A stretch of 64,000 bases of DNA from sequence record NC_106513.1; one strand, written 5' to 3'. Below are positions 6,476 through 38,845 of the stretch, piece by piece. The notes under the pieces were generated by a model that saw only the letters and a list, made by a program, of their open reading frames with translations, did no database searches and was not told the DNA's origin. Position 1 is the stretch's first letter. The number at the start of each line of letters is the position of its first letter. Both the position numbers and the translations under genes were made by a program. The stretch is from Escherichia phage vB_EcoS_ESCO30.

Positions 6476-8143
6476 ATGGTTATTTCCGCAGAAAAACAAT
6501 CCCAGATCATTAAACTTGCCGCTGATTTCAATTTCTATGGTAAACGTCTGCGCGCTACTAAACTGGAGGTCTGCGACGATATTTCAAAAGCGGTTTACGA
6601 TACTGCAAAATATTCCACCGCTATCTGCGACTGGTTGGAAGCAAATAAACCAGCGAAACCAAAAGCGGCGAAAGTAGCAAAAGCCATAAAAAACGACGAG
6701 CGCCCCGAAGCGGCTGGGATTGTTTCTAGTACCGTGGAACAGTGGGAAGTAAAACAAGGTAAACGCTTTATTATTACATCGATTCAGAATAATACTTTTC
6801 CTCATAAAAACTTTTTAGCCGCGCTTGAACAATATGCCCAATTTATCGGTGCTGATTTGCTGGTTAGCAAGTATATTTATAATAAAAACGGATTCCAAAA
6901 TGGTGAGGGCGCGGACGGAATCAAATATGATTCTGCGTTTGATAAATATATCTGCAATAAAAACGTGTTTTTGAATAATCGCCGTTTTGCTTTCATGGCT
7001 GAGATTAACGTGTTACCAACTGCAGATTATCCGCTGTCTGGATTCGCAGAAACTGCAACGGCTTTAAATATTGAAGGTCTGGCAATTGGTCACGCTAAAA
7101 TCACCGCCGAAAGCGTGCCAGCTTTAAAAGGTGAAGTAGTGCGCCGTATGTACTCAACCGGAACGGCGACGTTAAAAAACTACATTCAGCAGAAAGCAGG
7201 ACAAAAGGCCGAAGCGCTGCATAATTTCGGCGCGTTGATTGTCGAGTTCGATGAGGACGGTGAGTTTTTTGTTCGCCAGCTTGAAACAATGGATGAAAGC
7301 GGCATGTTTTATGATCTGAATGTTTGCGCTACTCCCGCCGGATGTTTTGAAACGTCCGATCATGTTTTAGGCTTGCAATATGGCGACATACACGCCGAAA
7401 AATTGGATGACGCTTGCGCCGTTGCGTCATGGGCTGGCGAAAATAGCTTGCTTGATATTCTCAAGCCTAAATATCAGTTTATCCATGACGTTCACGATTT
7501 TACATCGCGCAACCATCACAACCGCGCTTCTGGTGTATTCCTAGCAAAACAGTATGCCGCCGGACGTGATAAAGTTCTGGATGATCTCATCGATACCGGA
7601 CGCGTGCTGGAGTCAATGGAACGTGATTTTAGTCAAACAATCATTGTTGAATCAAACCACGATCTGGCGCTATCCCGTTGGCTGGATGATCGTAATGCTA
7701 ACATTAAAGACGACCCAGCAAACGCGGAACTATATCACCGCCTTAATGCTGCAATTTACGCGGCAATCGGTGATCATGACGATACTTTCAACGTGCTAGA
7801 TTATGCGTTGCGCAAGGTTGCAGGTTGTGAGTTTAATGCCATTTTCCTAACGACTGATCAATCTTTCAAGATTGCAGGCATTGAATGCGGCGTACACGGT
7901 CACAATGGCATAAACGGGAGCCGTGGCAATCCGAAGCAATTTAAGAAATTGGGCAAATTAAACACGGGGCACACTCATACCGCCAGTATTTACGGCGGCG
8001 TTTATACTGCTGGCGTGTCTGGTAGTCTGGACATGGGTTACAACGTTGGCGCGTCAAGCTGGACGCAAACGCATGTTATTACCTATGCAACCGGTCAGCG
8101 TACTCTGATCGACTTTAAGAATGGTAAATTTTTTGTACAGTAA
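6476..8143 (+). CDS. A1: A1-like pre-early protein, calcineurin/Mre11-type metallophosphatase nuclease (555 aa)
   Basis: Metallophosphoesterase motifs GDIHAE, ESNHD, GHTHT; size and position match my memory of T5 A1 (about 556 aa). Confidence 0.7.
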   Translation: MVISAEKQSQIIKLAADFNFYGKRLRATKLEVCDDISKAVYDTAKYSTAICDWLEANKPAKPKAAKVAKAIKNDERPEAAGIVSSTVEQWEVKQGKRFIITSIQNNTFPHKNFLAALEQYAQFIGADLLVSKYIYNKNGFQNGEGADGIKYDSAFDKYICNKNVFLNNRRFAFMAEINVLPTADYPLSGFAETATALNIEGLAIGHAKITAESVPALKGEVVRRMYSTGTATLKNYIQQKAGQKAEALHNFGALIVEFDEDGEFFVRQLETMDESGMFYDLNVCATPAGCFETSDHVLGLQYGDIHAEKLDDACAVASWAGENSLLDILKPKYQFIHDVHDFTSRNHHNRASGVFLAKQYAAGRDKVLDDLIDTGRVLESMERDFSQTIIVESNHDLALSRWLDDRNANIKDDPANAELYHRLNAAIYAAIGDHDDTFNVLDYALRKVAGCEFNAIFLTTDQSFKIAGIECGVHGHNGINGSRGNPKQFKKLGKLNTGHTHTASIYGGVYTAGVSGSLDMGYNVGASSWTQTHVITYATGQRTLIDFKNGKFFVQ

Positions 8144-9218: not shown

Positions 9219-9953
9219 ATGAATCAAGTTAAAATGAATATTACCCGTAATTTCCCGCATATTTCCCGCGTCATGATTTGGGATCTGGACGGCACTATCA
9301 TTAATTCGTTTCATCGTGTAGCGCCTTGCTTTGATAGCGAGGGCAATTTAGATTTAAATAAGTATAAAAATGAAGCCTGCAAACATGATTTAATAATGCA
9401 AGATACACTATTGCCCCTTGTTACATATATGCGCCAGTGCATGAATGACGCAAATACTTTAAACATTATTTGCACCGCTCGACTAATGAGCAAGTCGGAC
9501 TATTATTATTTGCGTAAACAAGGGTTGCGCGGTCGTGGTGATAGTAATATCCGCGTGTTTTCCCGCGATACACTACACAAATATTTTGAGGCTGATAAAG
9601 TTAGCGAGATATACCACAGCAAAGACGCAGTTTATAAAAGTTACTATTTTGGGTTATTCAAACAATTATATCCGAACGCTGATTTTACGATGATTGATGA
9701 TCATAAAGGCGTGCTATCAGCGGCGGCATCATACGGATTTAAAACGCTGGACGCGCAAGCCGTTAACGATATTCTATCAATCGGTGTCACATTGATAGGT
9801 GAAACCTTTATTGATGAATCTCTTGAGGATGATAATGATTATCAGTTCCTAGCCGACCGCCTGCAATTATGTTGGGAAGGTATGACCGAGGAGGAACGCG
9901 CGGAATATAGTTGCAGCCCGCAACAATATATTGAGAAATTAAAAGTTGCGTAA
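9219..9953 (+). CDS. dmp: HAD-family 5'-deoxyribonucleotidase (Dmp-like, 244 aa)
   Basis: N-terminal HAD motif MIWDLDGTIINS (DxDGT); pre-early position as in T5. Confidence 0.65.
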   Translation: MNQVKMNITRNFPHISRVMIWDLDGTIINSFHRVAPCFDSEGNLDLNKYKNEACKHDLIMQDTLLPLVTYMRQCMNDANTLNIICTARLMSKSDYYYLRKQGLRGRGDSNIRVFSRDTLHKYFEADKVSEIYHSKDAVYKSYYFGLFKQLYPNADFTMIDDHKGVLSAAASYGFKTLDAQAVNDILSIGVTLIGETFIDESLEDDNDYQFLADRLQLCWEGMTEEERAEYSCSPQQYIEKLKVA

Positions 9954-9970: not shown

Positions 9971-10007
9971 GTTTCACCCTGCAATTAAAATGGTTGCAGG
10001 GTGAAAC
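9971..10007. terminator. Strong 14-bp-stem hairpin GTTTCACCCTGCAA...TTGCAGGGTGAAAC between convergent genes
   Basis: Perfect inverted repeat read directly; lies between dmp (+) and the minus-strand peptide operon. Confidence 0.6.
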
Positions 10008-10117
10008 AGTTAGCATGGTAATAGTAACGGGGGTGGCGGTTAGCAGACTAAGTATTTTCGCCGGAGGCAGTGAGCACACCTTCATGTGTAATCTTATGAA
10101 ATTTCGAGATTTCCCAA

Positions 10118-10363
10118 TTAGCGCATAGAATGGTCGTCAAACCTGTGTTCTGGTCTGAACTCACGGAATCTCTTCCGCGACGCCCGAGATCCATCCGACC
10201 ACTCCCGCTCAAACTCCGCACGTTTCTCGTCAAACTTCCGCTCCCTTTCCGCAATCTCCCGCGATACTTCCGCAGTATACTTACGATGCTTGTTAATAGC
10301 CGCAGTCATTCCGAAAACTCCCGCGAGTACCCCGATAATAAAAGCAACTATAATACTAAACAT
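10118..10363 (-). CDS. Small single-pass membrane protein with charged C-terminal tail (81 aa)
   Basis: N-terminal hydrophobic helix MFSIIVAFIIGVLAGVFG; GAGAGGG SD; last gene of the coupled array. Confidence 0.5.
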   Translation of the reverse strand: MFSIIVAFIIGVLAGVFGMTAAINKHRKYTAEVSREIAERERKFDEKRAEFEREWSDGSRASRKRFREFRPEHRFDDHSMR

Positions 10364-10547
10364 CTAATTCCCTCTCAATTTGCAGAATACGGGTGCTATC
10401 ACAACGTTGCAGTAGTACTAGCTTTTCTAGAATAACTTGTTGTTGTTTCACCTGAGCCTCTAGAGTTTTTAGGCGGAGATACACGATACGAGAGACAATG
10501 AGGATTACCCAGACTAATATTACTATTAGTGTAACTGTCACTTCCAT
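10356..10547 (-). CDS. Small membrane peptide (63 aa), member of tandem family
   Basis: MEVTVTLIVILVWVILIV TM segment; start overlaps upstream stop (TAATG). Confidence 0.5.
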   Translation of the reverse strand: MEVTVTLIVILVWVILIVSRIVYLRLKTLEAQVKQQQVILEKLVLLQRCDSTRILQIERELDV

Positions 10548-10654
10548 TATTTACGTTTCTCCGATAGTAAGGTTTCGATTCTAGCTAAGTGATTATCTAA
10601 GATACATTGCCCAATAATCACAATCCCCAGTAGTGCAATAATTACCCATTCCAT
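10547..10654 (-). CDS. Small membrane peptide (35 aa, MEWVIIALLGIVIIGQCILDNHLARIETLLSEKRK)
   Basis: Hand-translated; TAATG coupling at both ends; paralog of 10654-10809. Confidence 0.4.
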   Translation of the reverse strand: MEWVIIALLGIVIIGQCILDNHLARIETLLSEKRK

Positions 10655-10809
10655 TATTTACGATCCTCTAATAAAGTTTCAATTCTAGATAATCTATTGC
10701 TCAACTGCATTAATTTAATTTCTGTTTGGGTTACAGAGGTATCTATTACACGTAAGCCTACAAAGAGAAGTACCAATAAGACGAATATGCCAATAATTAC
10801 CCATTCCAT
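10654..10809 (-). CDS. Small membrane peptide (51 aa, MEWVIIGIFVLLVLLFVGL...RIETLLEDRK)
   Basis: Internal ATG of track ORF 10654-10839; shares MEWVII start and RIETLL C-terminal motif with neighbour. Confidence 0.5.
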   Translation of the reverse strand: MEWVIIGIFVLLVLLFVGLRVIDTSVTQTEIKLMQLSNRLSRIETLLEDRK

Positions 10810-10937
10810 TAGATCCACCCCGCCATAGCTGCTAACCAAAAACCTACGAAGATTAGGAATAATACAAAACCAAATCCGTAAATGTTAACCCACGCTTCGT
10901 ACACTTCTCCGCGTCTGTTCTTTCTTTTGTTTGACAT
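10809..10937 (-). CDS. Small peptide (42 aa) with basic N-terminus and hydrophobic C-terminus
   Basis: Hand-translated (MSNKRKNRRGEVYEAWVNIYGFGFVLFLIFVGFWLAAMAGWI); stop overlaps next start. Confidence 0.35.
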   Translation of the reverse strand: MSNKRKNRRGEVYEAWVNIYGFGFVLFLIFVGFWLAAMAGWI

Positions 10938-11114
10938 ATCTTTCGTGCCCCCGTAAATGCGGTATTTTAAAATATTTTATAATTTGTGCATAACCAACCA
11001 TGCTCGTGACTTCCTAGAAGGGCTTCTCATTTTCTTGCATAGTGTTTTATGCCAGTACACCATCCAAGAAATAAAAAATTTAGTTTACTTGGATGTCTTT
11101 TTGTTTTATACTAA

Positions 11115-11381
11115 TTACAAGTAATTAGATTGTTCTAGTTTAAATTTACAATCACCATATTTAAGGTCAAACTGACTGAGATCCCACCATCCAAACTTAG
11201 TACGGAGCTGTACTACTGGAAAGCGATCTCCCTTAATACGAACTTTTTGAACCTTGAGACCGTAATGTTCTTCTCCCGCACCACCAAAAGATTTTACAAA
11301 TCCCGTGCAAAATGGTTTGGGAGCAGGTGCACAACCAGATAACATAACTGCGGCAACTAGTGCAATCACAAACTTTTTCAT
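11115..11381 (-). CDS. llp: Llp-like lytic-conversion lipoprotein (88 aa precursor)
   Basis: Signal peptide with lipobox LSGC; divergent from adjacent receptor-binding protein gene; own early-type promoter. Confidence 0.6.
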   Translation of the reverse strand: MKKFVIALVAAVMLSGCAPAPKPFCTGFVKSFGGAGEEHYGLKVQKVRIKGDRFPVVQLRTKFGWWDLSQFDLKYGDCKFKLEQSNYL

Positions 11382-11412
11382 ATTTATCTCTCCATTTCTA
11401 ATTTATGAATCT

Positions 11413-11441
11413 ATTATAGCAAAATAGAGGGATGAAAGCAA
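11413..11441 (-). promoter_or_regulatory. Sigma70 promoter TTGCTT-17-TATAAT upstream of llp
   Basis: Reverse complement of 11436-11441 gives -35 TTGCTT, of 11413-11418 gives -10 TATAAT, 17-nt spacer. Confidence 0.65.
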
Positions 11442-11466
11442 ATACATTTTTATAATAGGAGATTAT

Positions 11467-13254
11467 ATGGGTTTTTTCGCTGGAAAATATAGTGATGGTA
11501 AAACTGTATTATCGCTAAACAAAGTGAATGGTGGGGATATTAATGCCCACAAAACTCCTAATGCCAATACTATATTTCACTCTGATATGCCATTTGTTCT
11601 AGTTGAGAGTACTTATGAAAGTGCATTAAGTAGCGCTGGGAATGGTTTCTACGTATGCCAGATGCCTTCTGTGATAGCTAACCTAAAGAGTAATGATCCT
11701 GGTAGGGTTATACTAACCGCTGTTGAGATAAATGGTACGCATAGAGCTTTTCTTAATGGTACTCAATCCCAGGTTGGACAATTTCTTGCATTTTTTGAAG
11801 ATCCCCCTATTGGTAGGGCGGGTGCTGAATTAGGTCTTACGTCAGCTTTTGCATCTGGTAACAGTTTAGCACATGGTACTTATACTTATAACTCTAGTCT
11901 AGGACATGAAGAGTCAATAGCTAGACAAGGTACTGGTGGTACTATATCACAGGCTTCTGGGTTTAACTTATACAGACCTGGCGGGGCATATGCCGGTGAA
12001 GCCATAGGTAGAGCGTGGACTTTAGCAGGATTTCCAGCCGGAGCATCTAAAGTATCAATAAATAGTGGTAATGTTGACTTCTGGCACCCTAATTGGCAGG
12101 CTCCTATAGGGGCGGGAAAAAGAGGTCATAATTGGTTTTATGTTTGTAACTCCAATATACGTGGATATGCTGGTAAAAAGGGTACTACGCCAAGTAATGT
12201 TAGTGTATTATATAATTCTTCAACCTATCCAGATAAGGTTTATGTATGTAGAGGCTCGACATCTAATTTAGCATCACAGGCAGCAAAGAAGAAGTATGTT
12301 CAAGATAGTTATAATATTACTCCGACCAAGGTTATTTGGTATGTGCTGAATCTTAGATACTCTAACGGTGGTATGAGCGTTGCTAGTAATCCTTTTACTG
12401 GGTCTGATATTCGTATAAGCCCCTCTAACTTTACTATAAAAGGTGTTAGTCTTCCAAATACTAGTTACAAATTCATTAATCAGAATGCCTTTGGTAACTT
12501 ATCATCTAGACCTGATATGGAGTACATTGGTAATAACGTTGCTTATACCGGAGTCTTTGGAGACACTACAGCAAGATGCGAAATTGTAGGTTCTAATAAA
12601 GGCTCTTTATGGTCCCCTGTAAGTTACGGAGGTTCTAAGTCTCAGATAAGTATTTACAAATTCTCTGCTGGTAAACAATGGTATGTTAATTCCAATAATA
12701 ATACTATAGGTAATGAGCATGGGGTTGTTTGGGGACCTTCTTCAGTACCGTTACGATTACTACCAAATAACGTAGCTAGTACTTACATAGGTGATGACAT
12801 AAACCCTTCTTATCCAGGTACAGGGAATAAGTACGTAGCCCTATCTACAGTAGGTCTTGGATTACCTAATGCAAACTCTACAGTAATTCTAACTACTGAA
12901 GTAGTTGCCGGAAATCTTAATACAGCAGGAGGTCCTATACGAACATATGGTGGTACTGCGTGGCAGGTGCAAGGTAGAAGACAACAAAGTTATACCGGTG
13001 GTGATGGGGTATTCCATCAAATATTAACTTTACCCCCTAATCAGTTGGTGCCCTTCCATACTACAGCTTCTTATAGCTATACACAGCAGTGGGCTAGTCG
13101 ACCTGATGATTTAACATTTACTAGAAGTGGATTTATTTACACTATTAAAAATCTGGGTAACGGTAATGCTGAGTTAGGTGTAGTTATACATGCAAATGAA
13201 TCCGCTGCAGTTTTCTTACCGAGATTACGAGTAACAGTTCAACGCCTTACCTAA
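11467..13254 (+). CDS. Putative receptor-binding tail protein (pb5/Oad-like, 595 aa)
   Basis: Gly/Ser/Asn/Thr/Tyr-rich; sits divergently beside llp as in T5; no catalytic motif seen. Confidence 0.55.
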
Positions 13255-13264
13255 AGGAGGAAAT

Positions 13265-13747
13265 ATGGCAAATGATGTATTAGTACCAGATCTTATGTCC
13301 CCTGAAGGGATGGATGTGATTGAAGCTTATTTACAGTGCGGCAGCGATGTGCCTTCTGCCGCACGTAGTCTTGGAATGTCCGAAATTGCTTTCCGAGATA
13401 TTATGAATCGTAGTGAAGTTAAGAACTACTTAAACGATATTTTTATGGAGAGTGGATTCCGTAACAGAGATCGTTTGTTCGGTGTTCTAGATGAAGTTAT
13501 TAAACGTAAGCTAGAAGAGCTAGAAGAAACTGGCATGGGTTCTGACCAGGATATTATGGATATTCTATGGAAGGCACACAAAATGAAGATGGAAGAAATG
13601 AAAATGATGGTAGAGTTAGAAAAAGCTAAAGCTGCCGTTCGAGCTCCTGCTAATCAGACCAATATCCAGAATAACATTATTGCTGGAGCTGGGGATCAAA
13701 ACTACATGGACTTAATCACTTCCCTAGCTACTGGAGGTAAAAAGTAA
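13265..13747 (+). CDS. Terminase small subunit (160 aa)
   Basis: AGGAGG SD; HTH-like [19 protein letters not shown]; stop overlaps terminase large start. Confidence 0.55.
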
Positions 13748-15063
13748 TGGAAGTATCAAGACCCTACGTTAACACAGTAGATGTTATTGATTTCGGAATA
13801 GACAAACGTTTCTTCCGTCTACCTGTTTCTGGAATACTAGCACAAGAGGGTATTACACCTAATGGCCCTCAAATAGCAATTATCAATGCCCTAGAAGACC
13901 CTAGACATCGTTTTGTAACGGCGTGTGTATCACGCCGTGTAGGTAAATCTTTTATAGCATACACACTTGGGTTCCTAAAATTGCTGGAACCTAATGTGAA
14001 GGTACTAGTAGTTGCCCCTAACTACTCACTGGCCAATATCGGATGGTCTCAGATTCGTGGTCTTATTAAGAAGTATGGCCTGCAAACCGAACGTGAAAAC
14101 GCTAAAGATAAAGAGATTGAGTTAGCTAATGGTTCTCTATTTAAACTAGCTTCTGCGGCTCAGGCTGACTCCGCAGTTGGACGTTCATATGATTTTATCA
14201 TCTTTGATGAGGCGGCAATTTCTGATGTGGGTGGTGATGCCTTCAGGGTTCAGCTGCGTCCTACCCTAGATAAACCTAATTCTAAGGCTCTATTTATTTC
14301 CACCCCTCGTGGAGGTAACTGGTTTAAAGAGTTTTACGCCTACGGATTTGATGATACGTTGCCTAACTGGGTATCTATTCATGGTACATATCGTGATAAC
14401 CCACGTGCTGACTTGAATGATATTGAGGAAGCACGCCGTACAGTTAGTAAAAACTACTTCCGCCAAGAATACGAGGCTGACTTCTCCGTATTCGAAGGCC
14501 AGATCTTTGATACCTTTAATGCTATCGATCATGTTAAAGACCTCAAAGGTATGCGTCACTTCTTTAAAGATGATGAAGCATTCGAAACGTTGCTCGGTAT
14601 TGACGTTGGTTATCGTGATCCTACAGCAGTTCTTACTATTAAATATCATTACGATACGGATACCTACTATGTGTTAGAAGAATACCAGCAGGCGGAAAAA
14701 ACTACAGCTCAGCATGCTGCTTATATTCAGCACTGTATAGATCGTTATAAAGTTGATCGTATTTTTGTTGACTCTGCGGCAGCTCAGTTCCGCCAGGACT
14801 TAGCTTATGAGCATGAAATCGCATCGGCTCCAGCTAAAAAATCTGTCCTGGATGGTCTAGCATGTTTGCAAGCGTTATTCCAGCAGGGCAAGATTATTGT
14901 AGATGCTTCATGTTCCTCATTAATCCATGCATTGCAGAACTATAAGTGGGATTTCCAAGAAGGTGAAGAGAAATTATCGCGTGAAAAACCACGTCATGAT
15001 GCTAACTCTCACCTTTGTGATGCGCTGCGCTATGGAATTTACTCTATTTCCCGTGGTAAATAA
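13747..15063 (+). CDS. Terminase large subunit (438 aa)
   Basis: Walker A-like RRVGKS, Walker B-like IIFDEAAI, C-terminal nuclease-like region. Confidence 0.8.
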   Translation: MEVSRPYVNTVDVIDFGIDKRFFRLPVSGILAQEGITPNGPQIAIINALEDPRHRFVTACVSRRVGKSFIAYTLGFLKLLEPNVKVLVVAPNYSLANIGWSQIRGLIKKYGLQTERENAKDKEIELANGSLFKLASAAQADSAVGRSYDFIIFDEAAISDVGGDAFRVQLRPTLDKPNSKALFISTPRGGNWFKEFYAYGFDDTLPNWVSIHGTYRDNPRADLNDIEEARRTVSKNYFRQEYEADFSVFEGQIFDTFNAIDHVKDLKGMRHFFKDDEAFETLLGIDVGYRDPTAVLTIKYHYDTDTYYVLEEYQQAEKTTAQHAAYIQHCIDRYKVDRIFVDSAAAQFRQDLAYEHEIASAPAKKSVLDGLACLQALFQQGKIIVDASCSSLIHALQNYKWDFQEGEEKLSREKPRHDANSHLCDALRYGIYSISRGK

Positions 15064-15234: not shown

Positions 15235-15915
15235 ATGGGTCGACAAAAGCTAACAATAAAAGATATAAATATTAGATTAGCTGATCGTGGAATCCAAATT
15301 GTCGGTGAATATGTAAACCAACGTACAAAAACAGTATTTAAATGCCAGAGAGCACACGTTTGGGAAGCAACACCACATTCTATACTCCATATGAGGAGAG
15401 GTTGTCCACACTGCTCCAATAATACAATATCGTTAGATGAAGTTAGTAACAGAATATCTAGTATAGGATATACTCTGTTAAGCAGCTATACTAATGCTAA
15501 AACAAAATTACATCTACGCTGCAATAACGGGCATGACTGTTTCATTACCTTAGATGGATTGACTCAAGGTAAAAGATGTCCTTATTGCTCTCTTAAGTGG
15601 GAGAATGGCGGATTCCTCTATATCATGTCCTCCTCTAGCGGTACTAAAGTAGGCATAAGCTTATACCCTGAGAAACGGTTGAATGAAGTTAAAAGAGAAT
15701 CTGGATTTTCTGACCTGTACTTGTTCACCATGTATCATCTACCTGATAGAGAGACTGCTTTAGATTTAGAAAAGGAAGTTCACAGAGAATATTATAATAA
15801 AAACTGTGGGTTTTCTAATTTTACAGGAAGCACGGAATTTTTTAATGTTGCTCCTGAGGATATAGTAATCTTTCTAAGTAGCTTTGGATTGGAGGATTAT
15901 GGCCACCAATACTAA
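15235..15915 (+). CDS. T5orf172-domain protein with two N-terminal zinc-ribbon repeats (226 aa)
   Basis: Repeats KCQRAHVWE...GCPHCS and RCNNGH...KRCPYCS; C-terminal GFLYIMSS...KVGIS resembles T5orf172/GIY-YIG-like fold. Confidence 0.55.
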   Translation: MGRQKLTIKDINIRLADRGIQIVGEYVNQRTKTVFKCQRAHVWEATPHSILHMRRGCPHCSNNTISLDEVSNRISSIGYTLLSSYTNAKTKLHLRCNNGHDCFITLDGLTQGKRCPYCSLKWENGGFLYIMSSSSGTKVGISLYPEKRLNEVKRESGFSDLYLFTMYHLPDRETALDLEKEVHREYYNKNCGFSNFTGSTEFFNVAPEDIVIFLSSFGLEDYGHQY

Positions 15916-16336
15916 ATATAAACGTGATGCTATTTCCATAATGAGAGATGGTATAAAATCTAGGTATAGTAAGGATGGTTGCTGTGCTATATGTGGTAGT
16001 AGTGAAGACCTAGAACTTCATCACTATCATACTATATCTCAGCTAATAAAAAAATTTGCTAAAGAACTCCAGCTGGATTTCACTGATGAGAATATCGTCC
16101 TTTCAAATAGGGAAGCATTCTACAAGAAATATGAGCATGAGTTAGTTAGGGACGTGGTAACATTGTGCCAGCACCATCACCAATTATTACATAAGGTTTA
16201 CACAAAAGAACCTCCTTTATTTTCTGCTAATAAGCAAAAAGTGTGGGTTCAAAAGCAGAAAGACAAATTACAGAATCCTCAAGAAAAGACACAAGTCAAG
16301 ACTGAAACAAAATCAGGATTCGCAAGGTTCTTATAA
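15899..16336 (+). CDS. HNH endonuclease (about 145 aa)
   Basis: CCAICG...LELHHYH...CQHHHQLLH; start re-picked at ATG 15899 after GGAGG. Confidence 0.6.
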   Translation: MATNTKYKRDAISIMRDGIKSRYSKDGCCAICGSSEDLELHHYHTISQLIKKFAKELQLDFTDENIVLSNREAFYKKYEHELVRDVVTLCQHHHQLLHKVYTKEPPLFSANKQKVWVQKQKDKLQNPQEKTQVKTETKSGFARFL

Positions 16337-34493: not shown

Positions 34494-34916
34494 ATGAGTA
34501 CAGAAAATAGAGTTATTGATTTAGTAGTAGATGAGAACGTACCTTATGGTTTACTTATGCAATTTATGGATGTAGATGATAGTGTTTATCCTGCTACATC
34601 TAAGCCAGTAGATCTTACTGGCTTCTCTCTTAGAGGGAGTATTAAAAGTAGCTTAGAAGATGGAGCTGAAATTTTAGCATCCTTTACCACTTCTATTGTG
34701 GATGCTAGACAAGGTGTAGCGTCTATAAGTCTACCTGTTAATGCTGTAACTACTATTGCATCTAAAGCATCTAAAGAAAGAGATAGATATAACCCTAGAC
34801 AAAGGTTGGCTGGATACTATGATGTAATTATTACTAGAACAGCTGTTGGTAGCGCTACTAGTTCTTTCCGCATTATGGAAGGCAAGGTTTATATTAGTGA
34901 TGGGGTAACTCAATAA
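34494..34916 (+). CDS. Collar/fibre-attachment protein (140 aa)
   Basis: Size and position immediately upstream of the long tail fibre gene. Confidence 0.5.
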
Positions 34917-37900
34917 TGGCTATAACTAAAATAATTTTACAGCAAATGGTCACTATGGACCAGAATAGCATAACTGCAAGTAAGTATCCTAAATATACAG
35001 TTGTGCTTTCTAATTCCATTAGCTCTATTACGGCAGGAGAACTAACTACTGCTATAGAATCCTCTAAAGCTTCTGCTGCAGCAGCTAAACAATCAGAGAT
35101 TAATGCTAAACAGTCAGAGCTAAACGCTAAAGACTCTGAGAATGAAGCAGAAATTTCCGCAGCATCTTCCCAGCAATCTGCAACTCAGTCTGCATCTTCT
35201 GCTACTGCTTCTGCTAATAGCGCTAAAGCTGCTAAGACTTCTGAGACTAATGCAAAAGCTAGTGAGACGGCTGCAAAAACTTCAGAAACCAATGCAAAGG
35301 CTAGTGAAACAGCGGCTAAAACTTCTGAGACCAATGCTAATAGTAGCAAAACTGCTGCTGCTGCATCTGCTTCCGCAGCAAAAACCTCAGAAACTAATGC
35401 TGCTGCATCTGCTTCTGCCGCTAAAACCTCTGAAACTAACGCTAATAGTAGTAAAACTGCTGCTGCTAACAGTGCTAGTGCTGCTAAAGCATCAGAAACC
35501 AATGCTAAGACCTCAGAAACTAATGCGGCTGCTTCTGCTACTAAAGCTGAAAACGCAGCTTCCGGTATGCGTGATTCTATAGGTTTAGGTAATGCCCCCC
35601 GTAATTGTCCTGATATTTCTGGTAATCCTTCTGCGTATATTGGCTTTATGCGTATCATGAGTACTGCGGTAGGCTTTCCATCAATAGCCTCTGGAGAAAG
35701 TAGTCTTACAGGATTTATTAGTCAAGTGGATGGTAGTCCAGCGTACACTGGTGTTTTCCAAGGATGGGCGTCCCGCTCATTATATACATATCGTTGGGCA
35801 AGCAACATAGGCCCACAGTGGACACGTCATGCTCGTAAGAATGAGGTTGATAAGCTCGTCCAACTAAGTTCTGAGACCCACCTATTAAACCCGGGTGATA
35901 ATGCTAAAATAATTATTACTTCCAATAAACTCTGGGGAGCTTATGATATAGAGAATAGGACATACATACCTCTTGCAGTAGGACAGGGAGGTACCGGGGG
36001 TAGATCAGCTGCTGAAGCAAGAGCTAATCTACAGCTAAACCGCTTCCAACGTTCCAGTGATACAAGAACCATCGTTTGTTCAACAGATGTTCAGGCGGAT
36101 GGCTGTTATTTACAGGTTGATGCTAGTGGTCAGTGGGGCGCATTTAATCCTATAACTGGTAAATGGCAACCTCTCGCAATAGCTCAGGGTGGCACTGGTG
36201 CTCTTAATACTTCTGACGCACGTAGAAATCTGGAAGTAATGTATCGTAGATTTTCTACCTTAACAGACCAGAACTTGAATGATCTTACGGGTGAGTCTAC
36301 AGGTTTCTACTACCAGGGTCTATCTGCTAATGCAACTGCAGCCCGTAATTATCCTATTCAAGAAGCGGGAAACTTAATGGTACTACAAAATGGTGCTAAT
36401 GGGGTTGCTGGATGTTGTCAAATATACATTACCTTTAGTACTAATAGGATATACGAACGTAGTTATAACCCAGGTACCTCAACATGGTCTGCCTGGGGAT
36501 CTATCCTTAATAGTTATGATCCTAGCTACTGTAGACAGCTTATTGAGCTAGGTTCCCAGCATGCACCATTATTTGCTGGTCTAGCATTAACTGGATATAG
36601 TAATAGTACGGTAGCTGCTGGAGGTATTATTAATAGCTATCTAAGAGCTACAGATGGTACTCAAAGGGTACGTATGCGCTTATATCCAGAGAAACTTGCT
36701 GATGGGGTTGCGGCTGCAACGCTACAGGTTATGGGGGAAGATACTGGTCCATCTTATAAAACATTCCATTTTAAACACAATGGCCAATTATACGTACCAA
36801 ATGAAATAAATACGGAGACTATATCTGTTAGGGATCTTACTGTAACCCAACGAAATTTAGGTATACCTACTACTGGATTTATGGGTGATTACCAGACTAT
36901 CAATGCACCCGCAGGTGCTGTAGATGGAAAATACTACCCAGTTATATTCTATACTGGAGGTACCAGTGGTTATGGTATTACGCCTGTACCTATATTTGTG
37001 CGTACTCCTGGTAGATCTGCATCCCATGAGATGAACAATAATGTTTTCTCTGGATATGTAGCTTGTGGGGGTTGGAGTGATAGTCCCACTATGGCACACG
37101 GCATGTTTACAACATACGATCCTAATGAACTAGGGATCTTATGTATAAAGGGTAGTAACAAAGACTACTCTCAGCATATAGCAGTGTATGTACACTATAA
37201 GGCATTCCCTGTAAATATTATGACAGACCCTAAGGTTGTGATAACTGTTCCAACTGAGGATTATGTATTGGGTACTAACGGTGTTAAATTTAAGTTTGGG
37301 GTAACAGATGCGGGTGATGGGAACACAGAAGGTAATGTGAGTAATATTCTAAACTTTACTGGTGGTGGTTCTGGTTACTACTCTACCCATCCTTTCCGCC
37401 AGGGATTATCTAATAATTTTGCCCTAACTAATAACCTTAGTACTGGAGATGCTTTTTCTGCTACTGCACCTTCTTTTACTTTTAATGGTAGTGTTGTCGG
37501 TGCTAATAGTTATTCTGCTAGAGGTGATGCTGTAACAAAAAATACGTATATATCTCAACTGGTAAATAGTGCCGATAACATAGTAGGACAGAGTGAGTTT
37601 AGGGCAACCGAAGAAGCAGGACAAATTATTGTTAGGGATATGACTAGTTCTGCTAGTCATAAATTCTTTAATTTTAATAAGGATGGGACCTTTTCAGCTC
37701 CTTCCGGTATTTTATCCTCTACTGGTATAGACTGGAATACACAACATAATATTATCAATAAGTTTTATGGTATTGCTGGTCAAGTTAATAGTCCTGAAAA
37801 CAATGTTGTTTTTGGTGGTGTACATATAGGTTTTAGTGGTAACTTTGCTACTCAACTAGCCGGTAGGGGTAGTAGATATTACCTGAGAAGTATTGAATCT

Positions 37901-38845
37901 GGCACTATAGGTGCATGGAATCGTATAATTACGGATCAATATGCTGATTTTAAAGCACAAATTTTTGCTAACAAAAATGGCGAAGCTATAACCATTAAAT
38001 CGACAGTGAATGACAACTCGGAATCTGGATATATCGCTGGTAGAAATAATACCAATACCCGTTTATGGTACGTAGGAAAATCCGGTCCTCAAGAAACTGT
38101 GGTTATCCGTAATGAGATGAACGGAAACCAAATACTATTAAGGGATGGTGCTGGCGATATAAGCTTGGATACAAAGGGTGGGAATAAGGTCGTATACGCA
38201 AACGCGTCGAACTTTAGGCTTATTAATAGTAACGGAAAGTATACAAGATTAGTAACATCCGGAACTTCAACTCATGCAATTAGCCTGGATAACTGGGGTA
38301 CAACTACAAGACCAACTGTATTTGAATGTAAGTACGAAAATCCTTCTACTTCTGCTAACGTTGGTTGGATATTCTATGGTCAAGTAAATACCGATGGATC
38401 TAGAGTATTTCAAGTTAATGGTGCCGTTAACTGTGTAACTTTAAATCAAAGTTCCGACCGTGATCTTAAAGACAATATTAAACCAATCAAAGACGCAACA
38501 AATGCTTTGCGGAAAATGAATGGTTATACATATACACTTAAAGAAGACGGCTTACCTTATGCGGGTGTTATTGCTCAGGAAGTGATGGAGGCTCTACCTG
38601 AAGCTGTAAGTGGATTTACAAAATATACAGATCTTGAGGGACCTACTCTTACTGGAGAACAATTAGTTGGTGAAGAAAGATTCTACTCAGTAGACTATGG
38701 AGCAATTACCGGGTTATTAGTACAGGTAAGTAGGGAATCTGATAGTAGGATCACAGCTCTAGAATCAGAAGTATCTGATCTTAAAAAGCAAATTGCAGAC
38801 CTAACTCTAGTAGTTAACTCTTTGTTAGCAAATAGGGCACAGTAA
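34916..38845 (+). CDS. L-shaped tail fibre (pb1-like, 1309 aa) with C-terminal intramolecular chaperone (peptidase S74-like) domain
   Basis: C-terminal SDRDLKDNIKPI...GYTYTLKEDG...AGVIAQEV matches the auto-cleaving chaperone motif; N-terminal Ala/Ser/Thr tandem repeats. Confidence 0.8.
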   Translation: MAITKIILQQMVTMDQNSITASKYPKYTVVLSNSISSITAGELTTAIESSKASAAAAKQSEINAKQSELNAKDSENEAEISAASSQQSATQSASSATASANSAKAAKTSETNAKASETAAKTSETNAKASETAAKTSETNANSSKTAAAASASAAKTSETNAAASASAAKTSETNANSSKTAAANSASAAKASETNAKTSETNAAASATKAENAASGMRDSIGLGNAPRNCPDISGNPSAYIGFMRIMSTAVGFPSIASGESSLTGFISQVDGSPAYTGVFQGWASRSLYTYRWASNIGPQWTRHARKNEVDKLVQLSSETHLLNPGDNAKIIITSNKLWGAYDIENRTYIPLAVGQGGTGGRSAAEARANLQLNRFQRSSDTRTIVCSTDVQADGCYLQVDASGQWGAFNPITGKWQPLAIAQGGTGALNTSDARRNLEVMYRRFSTLTDQNLNDLTGESTGFYYQGLSANATAARNYPIQEAGNLMVLQNGANGVAGCCQIYITFSTNRIYERSYNPGTSTWSAWGSILNSYDPSYCRQLIELGSQHAPLFAGLALTGYSNSTVAAGGIINSYLRATDGTQRVRMRLYPEKLADGVAAATLQVMGEDTGPSYKTFHFKHNGQLYVPNEINTETISVRDLTVTQRNLGIPTTGFMGDYQTINAPAGAVDGKYYPVIFYTGGTSGYGITPVPIFVRTPGRSASHEMNNNVFSGYVACGGWSDSPTMAHGMFTTYDPNELGILCIKGSNKDYSQHIAVYVHYKAFPVNIMTDPKVVITVPTEDYVLGTNGVKFKFGVTDAGDGNTEGNVSNILNFTGGGSGYYSTHPFRQGLSNNFALTNNLSTGDAFSATAPSFTFNGSVVGANSYSARGDAVTKNTYISQLVNSADNIVGQSEFRATEEAGQIIVRDMTSSASHKFFNFNKDGTFSAPSGILSSTGIDWNTQHNIINKFYGIAGQVNSPENNVVFGGVHIGFSGNFATQLAGRGSRYYLRSIESGTIGAWNRIITDQYADFKAQIFANKNGEAITIKSTVNDNSESGYIAGRNNTNTRLWYVGKSGPQETVVIRNEMNGNQILLRDGAGDISLDTKGGNKVVYANASNFRLINSNGKYTRLVTSGTSTHAISLDNWGTTTRPTVFECKYENPSTSANVGWIFYGQVNTDGSRVFQVNGAVNCVTLNQSSDRDLKDNIKPIKDATNALRKMNGYTYTLKEDGLPYAGVIAQEVMEALPEAVSGFTKYTDLEGPTLTGEQLVGEERFYSVDYGAITGLLVQVSRESDSRITALESEVSDLKKQIADLTLVVNSLLANRAQ
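35185..35560 (+). repeat. In-frame low-complexity tandem repeats (KTSETNA/ASASAAK units) inside the tail fibre gene
   Basis: Repeated nucleotide units read directly; they generate spurious antisense ORFs. Confidence 0.75.

Follow-up and report, generated by a model that had tools for sequence, protein, structure and literature searches.

The closest described system is the hrs-llp gene pair of phage BF23 (DQ097178; Mondigler, Ayoub and Heller 2006, J Basic Microbiol 46:116; genome OR083247). The receptor of BF23 is BtuB, in contrast to FhuA for T5; hrs can take the place of the T5 gene oad functionally, and Llp performs lytic conversion (PMC10644984). The llp gene product of phage DT57C differs from that of BF23 by one amino acid (Golomidova et al., PMC4728585). 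Leaky expression of the DT57C llp from a plasmid lowers plating by a factor of more than 100 for BF23 and DT57C and leaves T5 unaffected, and Llp of this DT57C/BF23 type is reported to protect 100-fold to million-fold against BtuB-dependent phages and not at all against T5 (PMC4728585). BtuB use has also been demonstrated experimentally for several of the Epseptimavirus/Tequintavirus modules of EPS7, SPC35, DT57C, S114/S126 and phiR2-01 (PMC4728585, PMC8594841), and according to Maffei et al., BtuB is the receptor of the great majority of Markadamsvirinae (PMC8594841).

Structures are available for the oad-llp pair of T5, which is directed at FhuA (PDB 8A8C, 8B14, 8A60, 7QJF). In the work of van den Berg et al., T5 Llp was shown to be bound on the periplasmic side of FhuA, in which the plug adopts a non-native conformation, and Llp binding causes the extracellular loops EL7 and EL8 to fold into the site of pb5 (PMC9586334). 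The same work proposed that jamming by small lipoproteins is common to TonB-dependent transporters in general (PMC9586334). The Cor proteins of T1-like and lambdoid phages, which belong to phrog_1119, are likewise small lipoproteins encoded beside receptor-binding genes that inactivate a TonB-dependent transporter. A preprint reports that T5 Llp and Cor share a fold and does not mention BF23 or BtuB (10.64898/2026.03.26.714494).

We analysed a window of 64,000 nucleotides from Escherichia phage vB_EcoS_ESCO30 (NC_106513.1), which DNA searches assign to a T5-like phage of the genus Tequintavirus. The window contains two divergent ATG-started ORFs, whose coordinates, divergent orientation and lengths in the initial annotation agree with the ORF list and the sequence. 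The ORF at 11115..11381 on the minus strand encodes a predicted 88-aa receptor-blocking (lytic conversion or superinfection exclusion) lipoprotein precursor, Llp, and the ORF at 11467..13254 on the plus strand encodes a 595-aa putative receptor-binding tail-tip protein (RBP) of the pb5 family and the BF23 (BtuB) type, hrs/oad. As judged from these sequences, the gene pair is very probably a receptor-binding and receptor-blocking module of the BtuB type, and there is no evidence here that contradicts this assignment. The module is already known, as the BF23 form of the T5-like two-gene host-recognition module. The novelty that had been implied for the pair is not upheld, since no other module type is as common among T5-like phages.

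The arrangement of the locus is that of BF23. A distance of 85 nt separates the two start codons, and the order of the small membrane ORFs, llp, the RBP gene and the genes of the small and large terminase subunits is the same in the window, BF23, Salmonella phage SE11 and T5. The RBP gene is flanked by llp and the gene of the small terminase subunit and is placed where the late region ends, beside the terminal repeat. Directly 3´ of it follow the genes of the small (13265..13747, plus strand) and large (13747..15063, plus strand) terminase subunits, which were recognized by a match to phrog_3802 (E 1e-90) and by the Pfam domains Terminase_6N and Terminase_6C. On the other side, four ORFs for small single-pass membrane proteins (10118..10937, minus strand) are located downstream of llp, between llp and the terminal repeat; they are homologues of T5.159-162 and of BF23 Orf1-4 (BLASTP, 35–96% identity). 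BF23 has the same lengths of the two proteins (595 and 88 aa), the same divergent layout with an 85-nt intergenic region and annotated llp -35 and -10 signals, and the same neighbours, with the terminase genes on one side and four small membrane ORFs and the terminal repeat on the other. The T5 pair occupies the same genome position with the same divergent layout and a TTGCTT-17-TATAAT promoter. The modules of EPS7, SPC35, DT57C, S114/S126 and phiR2-01 are also laid out in this way, but carry more distant alleles than the BF23/SE11 group (66–87% identity for the RBP and 58–99% for Llp). Terminator-like sites were not found after llp or after the RBP gene. The second of the small membrane ORFs (10654..10839) measures 51–61 aa versus 35–38 aa for its homologues, and about 100 nt of it (about 10694..10791) have no match in BF23, SE11 or T5.

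The RBP is dominated by Gly (11.6%), Ser (10.3%) and Asn (8.7%) as its commonest residues, which fits its description as a Gly/Ser/Asn-rich protein. When it was aligned to the RBPs of T5 and BF23, a comparison suggested in the initial annotation, the two identities were 31% and 96.6%. The 31% identity with T5 pb5 extends over the full length (E 4e-59), with the highest similarity over residues 1–100 (43%) and 301–470. In contrast, BF23 Hrs is identical at 575 of 595 positions and has the same length of 595 aa. The closest RBPs (99%) come from the Salmonella phages SE11, Stp1, SP3 and the Kenya-K series, and the SE11 protein is identical at 591 of 595 positions (99.3%). The narrow BF23/SE11 allele group comprises 22 phage records with at least 95% RBP identity. 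Over residues 1–595 the protein belongs to phrog_4815, 'receptor binding tail protein' (E 6e-267), and it matches the solved pb5 structures 8b14_B and 8a8c_B in the PDB (E 1.9e-50); the Pfam search of the RBP matched no family. The near-identity to Hrs bears out the earlier proposal that the large divergent protein is the tail receptor-binding protein, and the use of BtuB by BF23 argues for the second part of that proposal, a receptor other than the FhuA of T5. On the basis of this near-identity, the RBP is predicted to bind the BtuB of E. coli and Salmonella.

The initial annotation had argued for another receptor from the length of the protein. The RBP is indeed shorter than T5 pb5, which has 640 aa (oad, 1923 nt; 640 residues in PDB chain 8b14_B) and is thus 45 residues longer; pb5 binds FhuA and has diverged from the RBP in its middle and loop regions. 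Taken by itself, the length argument (595 vs 640 aa) is weak, and it is the identity to BF23 Hrs that carries the conclusion.

The 20 substitutions that separate the RBP from BF23 Hrs are scattered, and several are near segments that align with the FhuA-contacting loops of pb5. In pb5, Phe170 forms the tip of the FhuA-contacting loop L2, and loop L4 comprises residues 570–590 (PMC9586334). A cluster of substitutions at residues 173–180 of the RBP lies just past the position aligned to Phe170, and the substitutions at 526, 541 and 552 are in or beside the stretch aligned to L4. One explanation is that, through the 20 substitutions, the RBP has come to use FhuA, FepA or another porin and that llp is a mismatched passenger, and recombination between hrs and llp is documented in DT57C (PMC4728585). 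Several observations make this very unlikely. The Hrs of DT57C uses BtuB (PMC4728585) at an identity of about 70% (measured via its relative D1G); BtuB use that is kept at this distance renders a switch at 96.6% identity highly improbable. The RBP allele is of the BF23 type and not of the T5 (FhuA) or H8 (FepA) type; with the FhuA-type RBPs, those of T5 and the S130/S131 group, it shares only about 31% identity. Compared with BF23 hrs, from which it diverges by 9% at the nucleotide level, the RBP gene shows 137 synonymous versus 20 non-synonymous codon differences, and llp shows 7 versus 0; the excess of synonymous differences indicates strong purifying selection on both genes. The RBP gene and llp have also been inherited together with those of SE11: across the module, positions 11000..13400 show a DNA identity of 96.7% to SE11, and of 92% to BF23. 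Thus, BtuB remains the predicted receptor. The proximity of the substitutions to the aligned receptor loops suggests that the fine specificity, for example for E. coli versus Salmonella BtuB, could differ from that of BF23; as a matter of speculation, the substitutions could represent tuning to Salmonella BtuB.

The precursor of Llp begins with MKKFVIALVAAVMLSGC, in which residues 1–16 form the signal peptide and the lipobox L-S-G-C places the predicted lipidated residue at Cys17. The protein passes the Pfam family LPAM_1 with 23.9 bits (cut-off 20), which together with the sequence substantiates its reading as an 88-aa lipoprotein precursor with an LSGC lipobox. The residue at position +2 after the lipidation Cys, as read from the sequence, is Ala, and we read Ala at this position as a sign of outer-membrane sorting of a lipoprotein. 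All 88 residues are identical to those of BF23 Llp, the blocker of BtuB-dependent infection, and the earlier view of the protein as an Llp-like receptor blocker thereby gains support from sequence comparison. Homologues of BF23-type Llp are present in 439 phage records, compared with 34 for T5-type Llp, and both genes of the module have hundreds of homologues, which is far beyond chance. Llp falls in phrog_1119, 'Cor superinfection exclusion protein' (E 1.8e-26), a match that may stem from BF23-type members within that PHROG.

In size and lipobox, Llp resembles the o-spanins, and a small lipoprotein of this kind might have a role other than blocking, such as that of an o-spanin in lysis. This is extremely unlikely for Llp. 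It is identical to a protein reported to confer resistance to BF23 (PMC4728585) and falls in the Cor/Llp PHROG; its gene is divergent to the RBP gene, has its own sigma-70-type promoter and is located outside any lysis cassette; and no i-spanin partner was present among the annotated or homology-assigned neighbouring ORFs.

The llp promoter is located at 11413..11441 on the minus strand and consists of a -35 hexamer TTGCTT (11441..11436), a spacer of 17 nt and a -10 hexamer TATAAT (11418..11413), with an A/T-rich tract upstream of the -35 hexamer. A Shine-Dalgarno sequence GGAGAG precedes the llp start codon ATG (11381..11379) by 6 nt. The -10 hexamer is perfect, whereas the -35 hexamer shares only 3 of its 6 bases with TTGACA, and owing to this score the promoter was not listed by a generic sigma-70 scan. 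That scan returned 10 promoter-like sites in 10000..13800 versus 11.3 in shuffled sequences and is therefore uninformative either way. The promoter assignment instead follows from conservation and annotation. In the alignment, BF23, SE11 and T5 have both hexamers and the 17-nt spacing without any change; the BF23 record DQ097178 annotates the same positions as the minus_35 and minus_10 signals of llp, the BF23 genome record annotates the promoter as early, and the T5 record annotates divergent promoters in the corresponding intergenic space. Of the 'consensus early promoter' that the initial annotation had placed here, the promoter itself stands, with its perfect -10 hexamer and the BF23 annotation, but the -35 hexamer is the T5-type TTGCTT and not the sigma-70 consensus.

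On the plus strand, the RBP gene has a Shine-Dalgarno sequence AGGAG at 11457..11461. A TATAAT at 11451..11456 was considered as part of a late promoter for the RBP gene and was not adopted, because it abuts this Shine-Dalgarno sequence, so that a transcript would begin at or past the ribosome-binding site, and because it falls in a 6-nt gap of the T5 sequence. There is also an overlap between this TATAAT and the A/T-rich tract that precedes the -35 hexamer of llp.

The relationship of BF23-type Llp to T5 Llp and Cor was examined with sequence profiles and a structure model. BLASTP aligns Llp and T5 Llp with 30% identity (E 1e-4); this match consists mostly of the signal peptide and was rejected as evidence of homology. 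When the profile of Llp without its signal peptide was compared with mature T5 Llp, the hhalign probability was 0.3%, which means no detectable similarity. In contrast, the BF23-type Llp profile matches the mature Cor of the T1-like Escherichia phage aalborv (Hanrivervirus; L005 2501..2728) with an hhalign probability of 83.6% (E 8e-6) over 57 columns, and all three Cys are matched in the alignment. The match to the Cor of the Tunavirus JMPW2 (L006 2501..2728) is weak (probability 31%, E 5e-4). T5 Llp also matches phrog_1119. On these sequence comparisons, BF23-type Llp probably belongs to the Cor/Llp family as a distant member. The profile match to Cor softens the label 'non-homologous' found in the literature and makes a shared mechanism more plausible. 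The characterised Cor proteins act on FhuA, whereas Llp is predicted to act on BtuB; Llp is also 13 residues longer than Cor.

A search of 5.8 billion proteins with Llp gave only 11 clusters, all 58–99% identical, which accounts for the shallow alignment (12 sequences) behind the structure model. The predicted mature Llp has a pLDDT of 83.7 and contains five strands and a short helix. Foldseek with this model returned nothing significant; structurally, the model comes closest to the T5 Llp of the FhuA complex. The two proteins have in common that they are small lipoproteins with a pair of Cys near the two ends, and the model hints at a similar small β-barrel. Cys25 and Cys78 of Llp (mature Cys9 and Cys62) are invariant among 12 family members; the T5 counterpart of this pair, Cys11-Cys58, is a disulphide.

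By analogy with the crystal structure of T5 Llp-FhuA, we infer that Llp has a periplasmic site on BtuB and acts there by plug jamming, or 'reverse allostery'. Periplasmic jamming has been shown structurally for T5 Llp-FhuA only (PMC9586334). Llp could instead block BtuB from the outside or compete directly for the RBP site, with no jamming of the plug from the periplasm. This alternative draws on the lack of detectable sequence similarity between mature BF23-type Llp and T5 Llp, and on the search of PDB sequences with Llp, which gave matches at chance level only (ovomucoid, E 0.2) and no BtuB-Llp structure. We consider it unlikely, because the lipobox and the Ala at +2 point to an outer-membrane lipoprotein that faces the periplasm, because the model is closest to the FhuA-bound form of T5 Llp and because the Cys pair near the two ends is found in both proteins. 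Moreover, an external location of T5 Llp was itself overturned by the crystal structure and a delta-EL7 experiment (PMC9586334).

With periplasmic plug jamming as the preferred action of Llp, the module would work as follows. The RBP at the tip of the straight central tail fibre would bind BtuB, the TonB-dependent vitamin B12 transporter, and this binding would lead to irreversible adsorption and DNA ejection. Llp would be made early from its own promoter, exported, lipidated on Cys17 and cleaved, and would then bind BtuB and lock the transporter in a state that is closed to the RBP. Through this lock, superinfection would be excluded, and progeny would not be wasted on envelope debris after lysis.

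The module is set in a genome of mosaic character. The first 25 kb of the window are about 92–93% identical to NBSal005, vB_Sen_I1, BF23 and others, and none of the listed phage records with coverage of most of this region is closer; set against the 96.7% identity of the llp-RBP module to SE11, this level of identity indicates a mosaic genome. The genome may lie below the 95% species threshold. Relative to the standard T5/BF23 map, the window shows the right-hand end in reverse complement, and its positions 1..~10076 correspond to the long terminal repeat, which carries the pre-early genes, among them A1 (6476..8143) and the 5´-deoxynucleotidase gene dmp (9219..9953). A probable homing endonuclease gene, the plus-strand ORF at 15235..15915, codes for 226 aa with T5orf172/MUG113, CapR and treble-clef zinc-finger domains. 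Its neighbours are the terminase large-subunit gene on one side and an HNH nicking endonuclease gene (15884..16336) on the other, and it is missing from the corresponding site in BF23 and SE11; it is complete in 72 of 440 matching phage records and about 98.5% identical in the top matches listed, such as NBSal005 and T5_ev212. The gene of the L-shaped tail fibre (34916..38845, plus strand) is a single ORF of 1309 aa with a C-terminal Peptidase_S74 intramolecular chaperone domain. This one-gene arrangement is that of T5 and BF23, unlike the two genes LtfA and LtfB of DT57C, and the O-antigen target of the tail fibre would determine the host range together with BtuB.

That BtuB is the terminal receptor of this phage is a prediction that can be made from sequence alone. 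Such a prediction is useful for assembling phage cocktails, because loss of btuB would give cross-resistance to most T5-like phages and to the E colicins. Apart from the hint of a shared fold, the locus adds nothing new on how such modules work. A fold shared by BtuB-blocking and FhuA-blocking lipoproteins, as hinted at here, would back the published proposal of a general jamming of transporters. If aalborv uses BtuB, the alleles of Cor and Llp would group by receptor across phage families.
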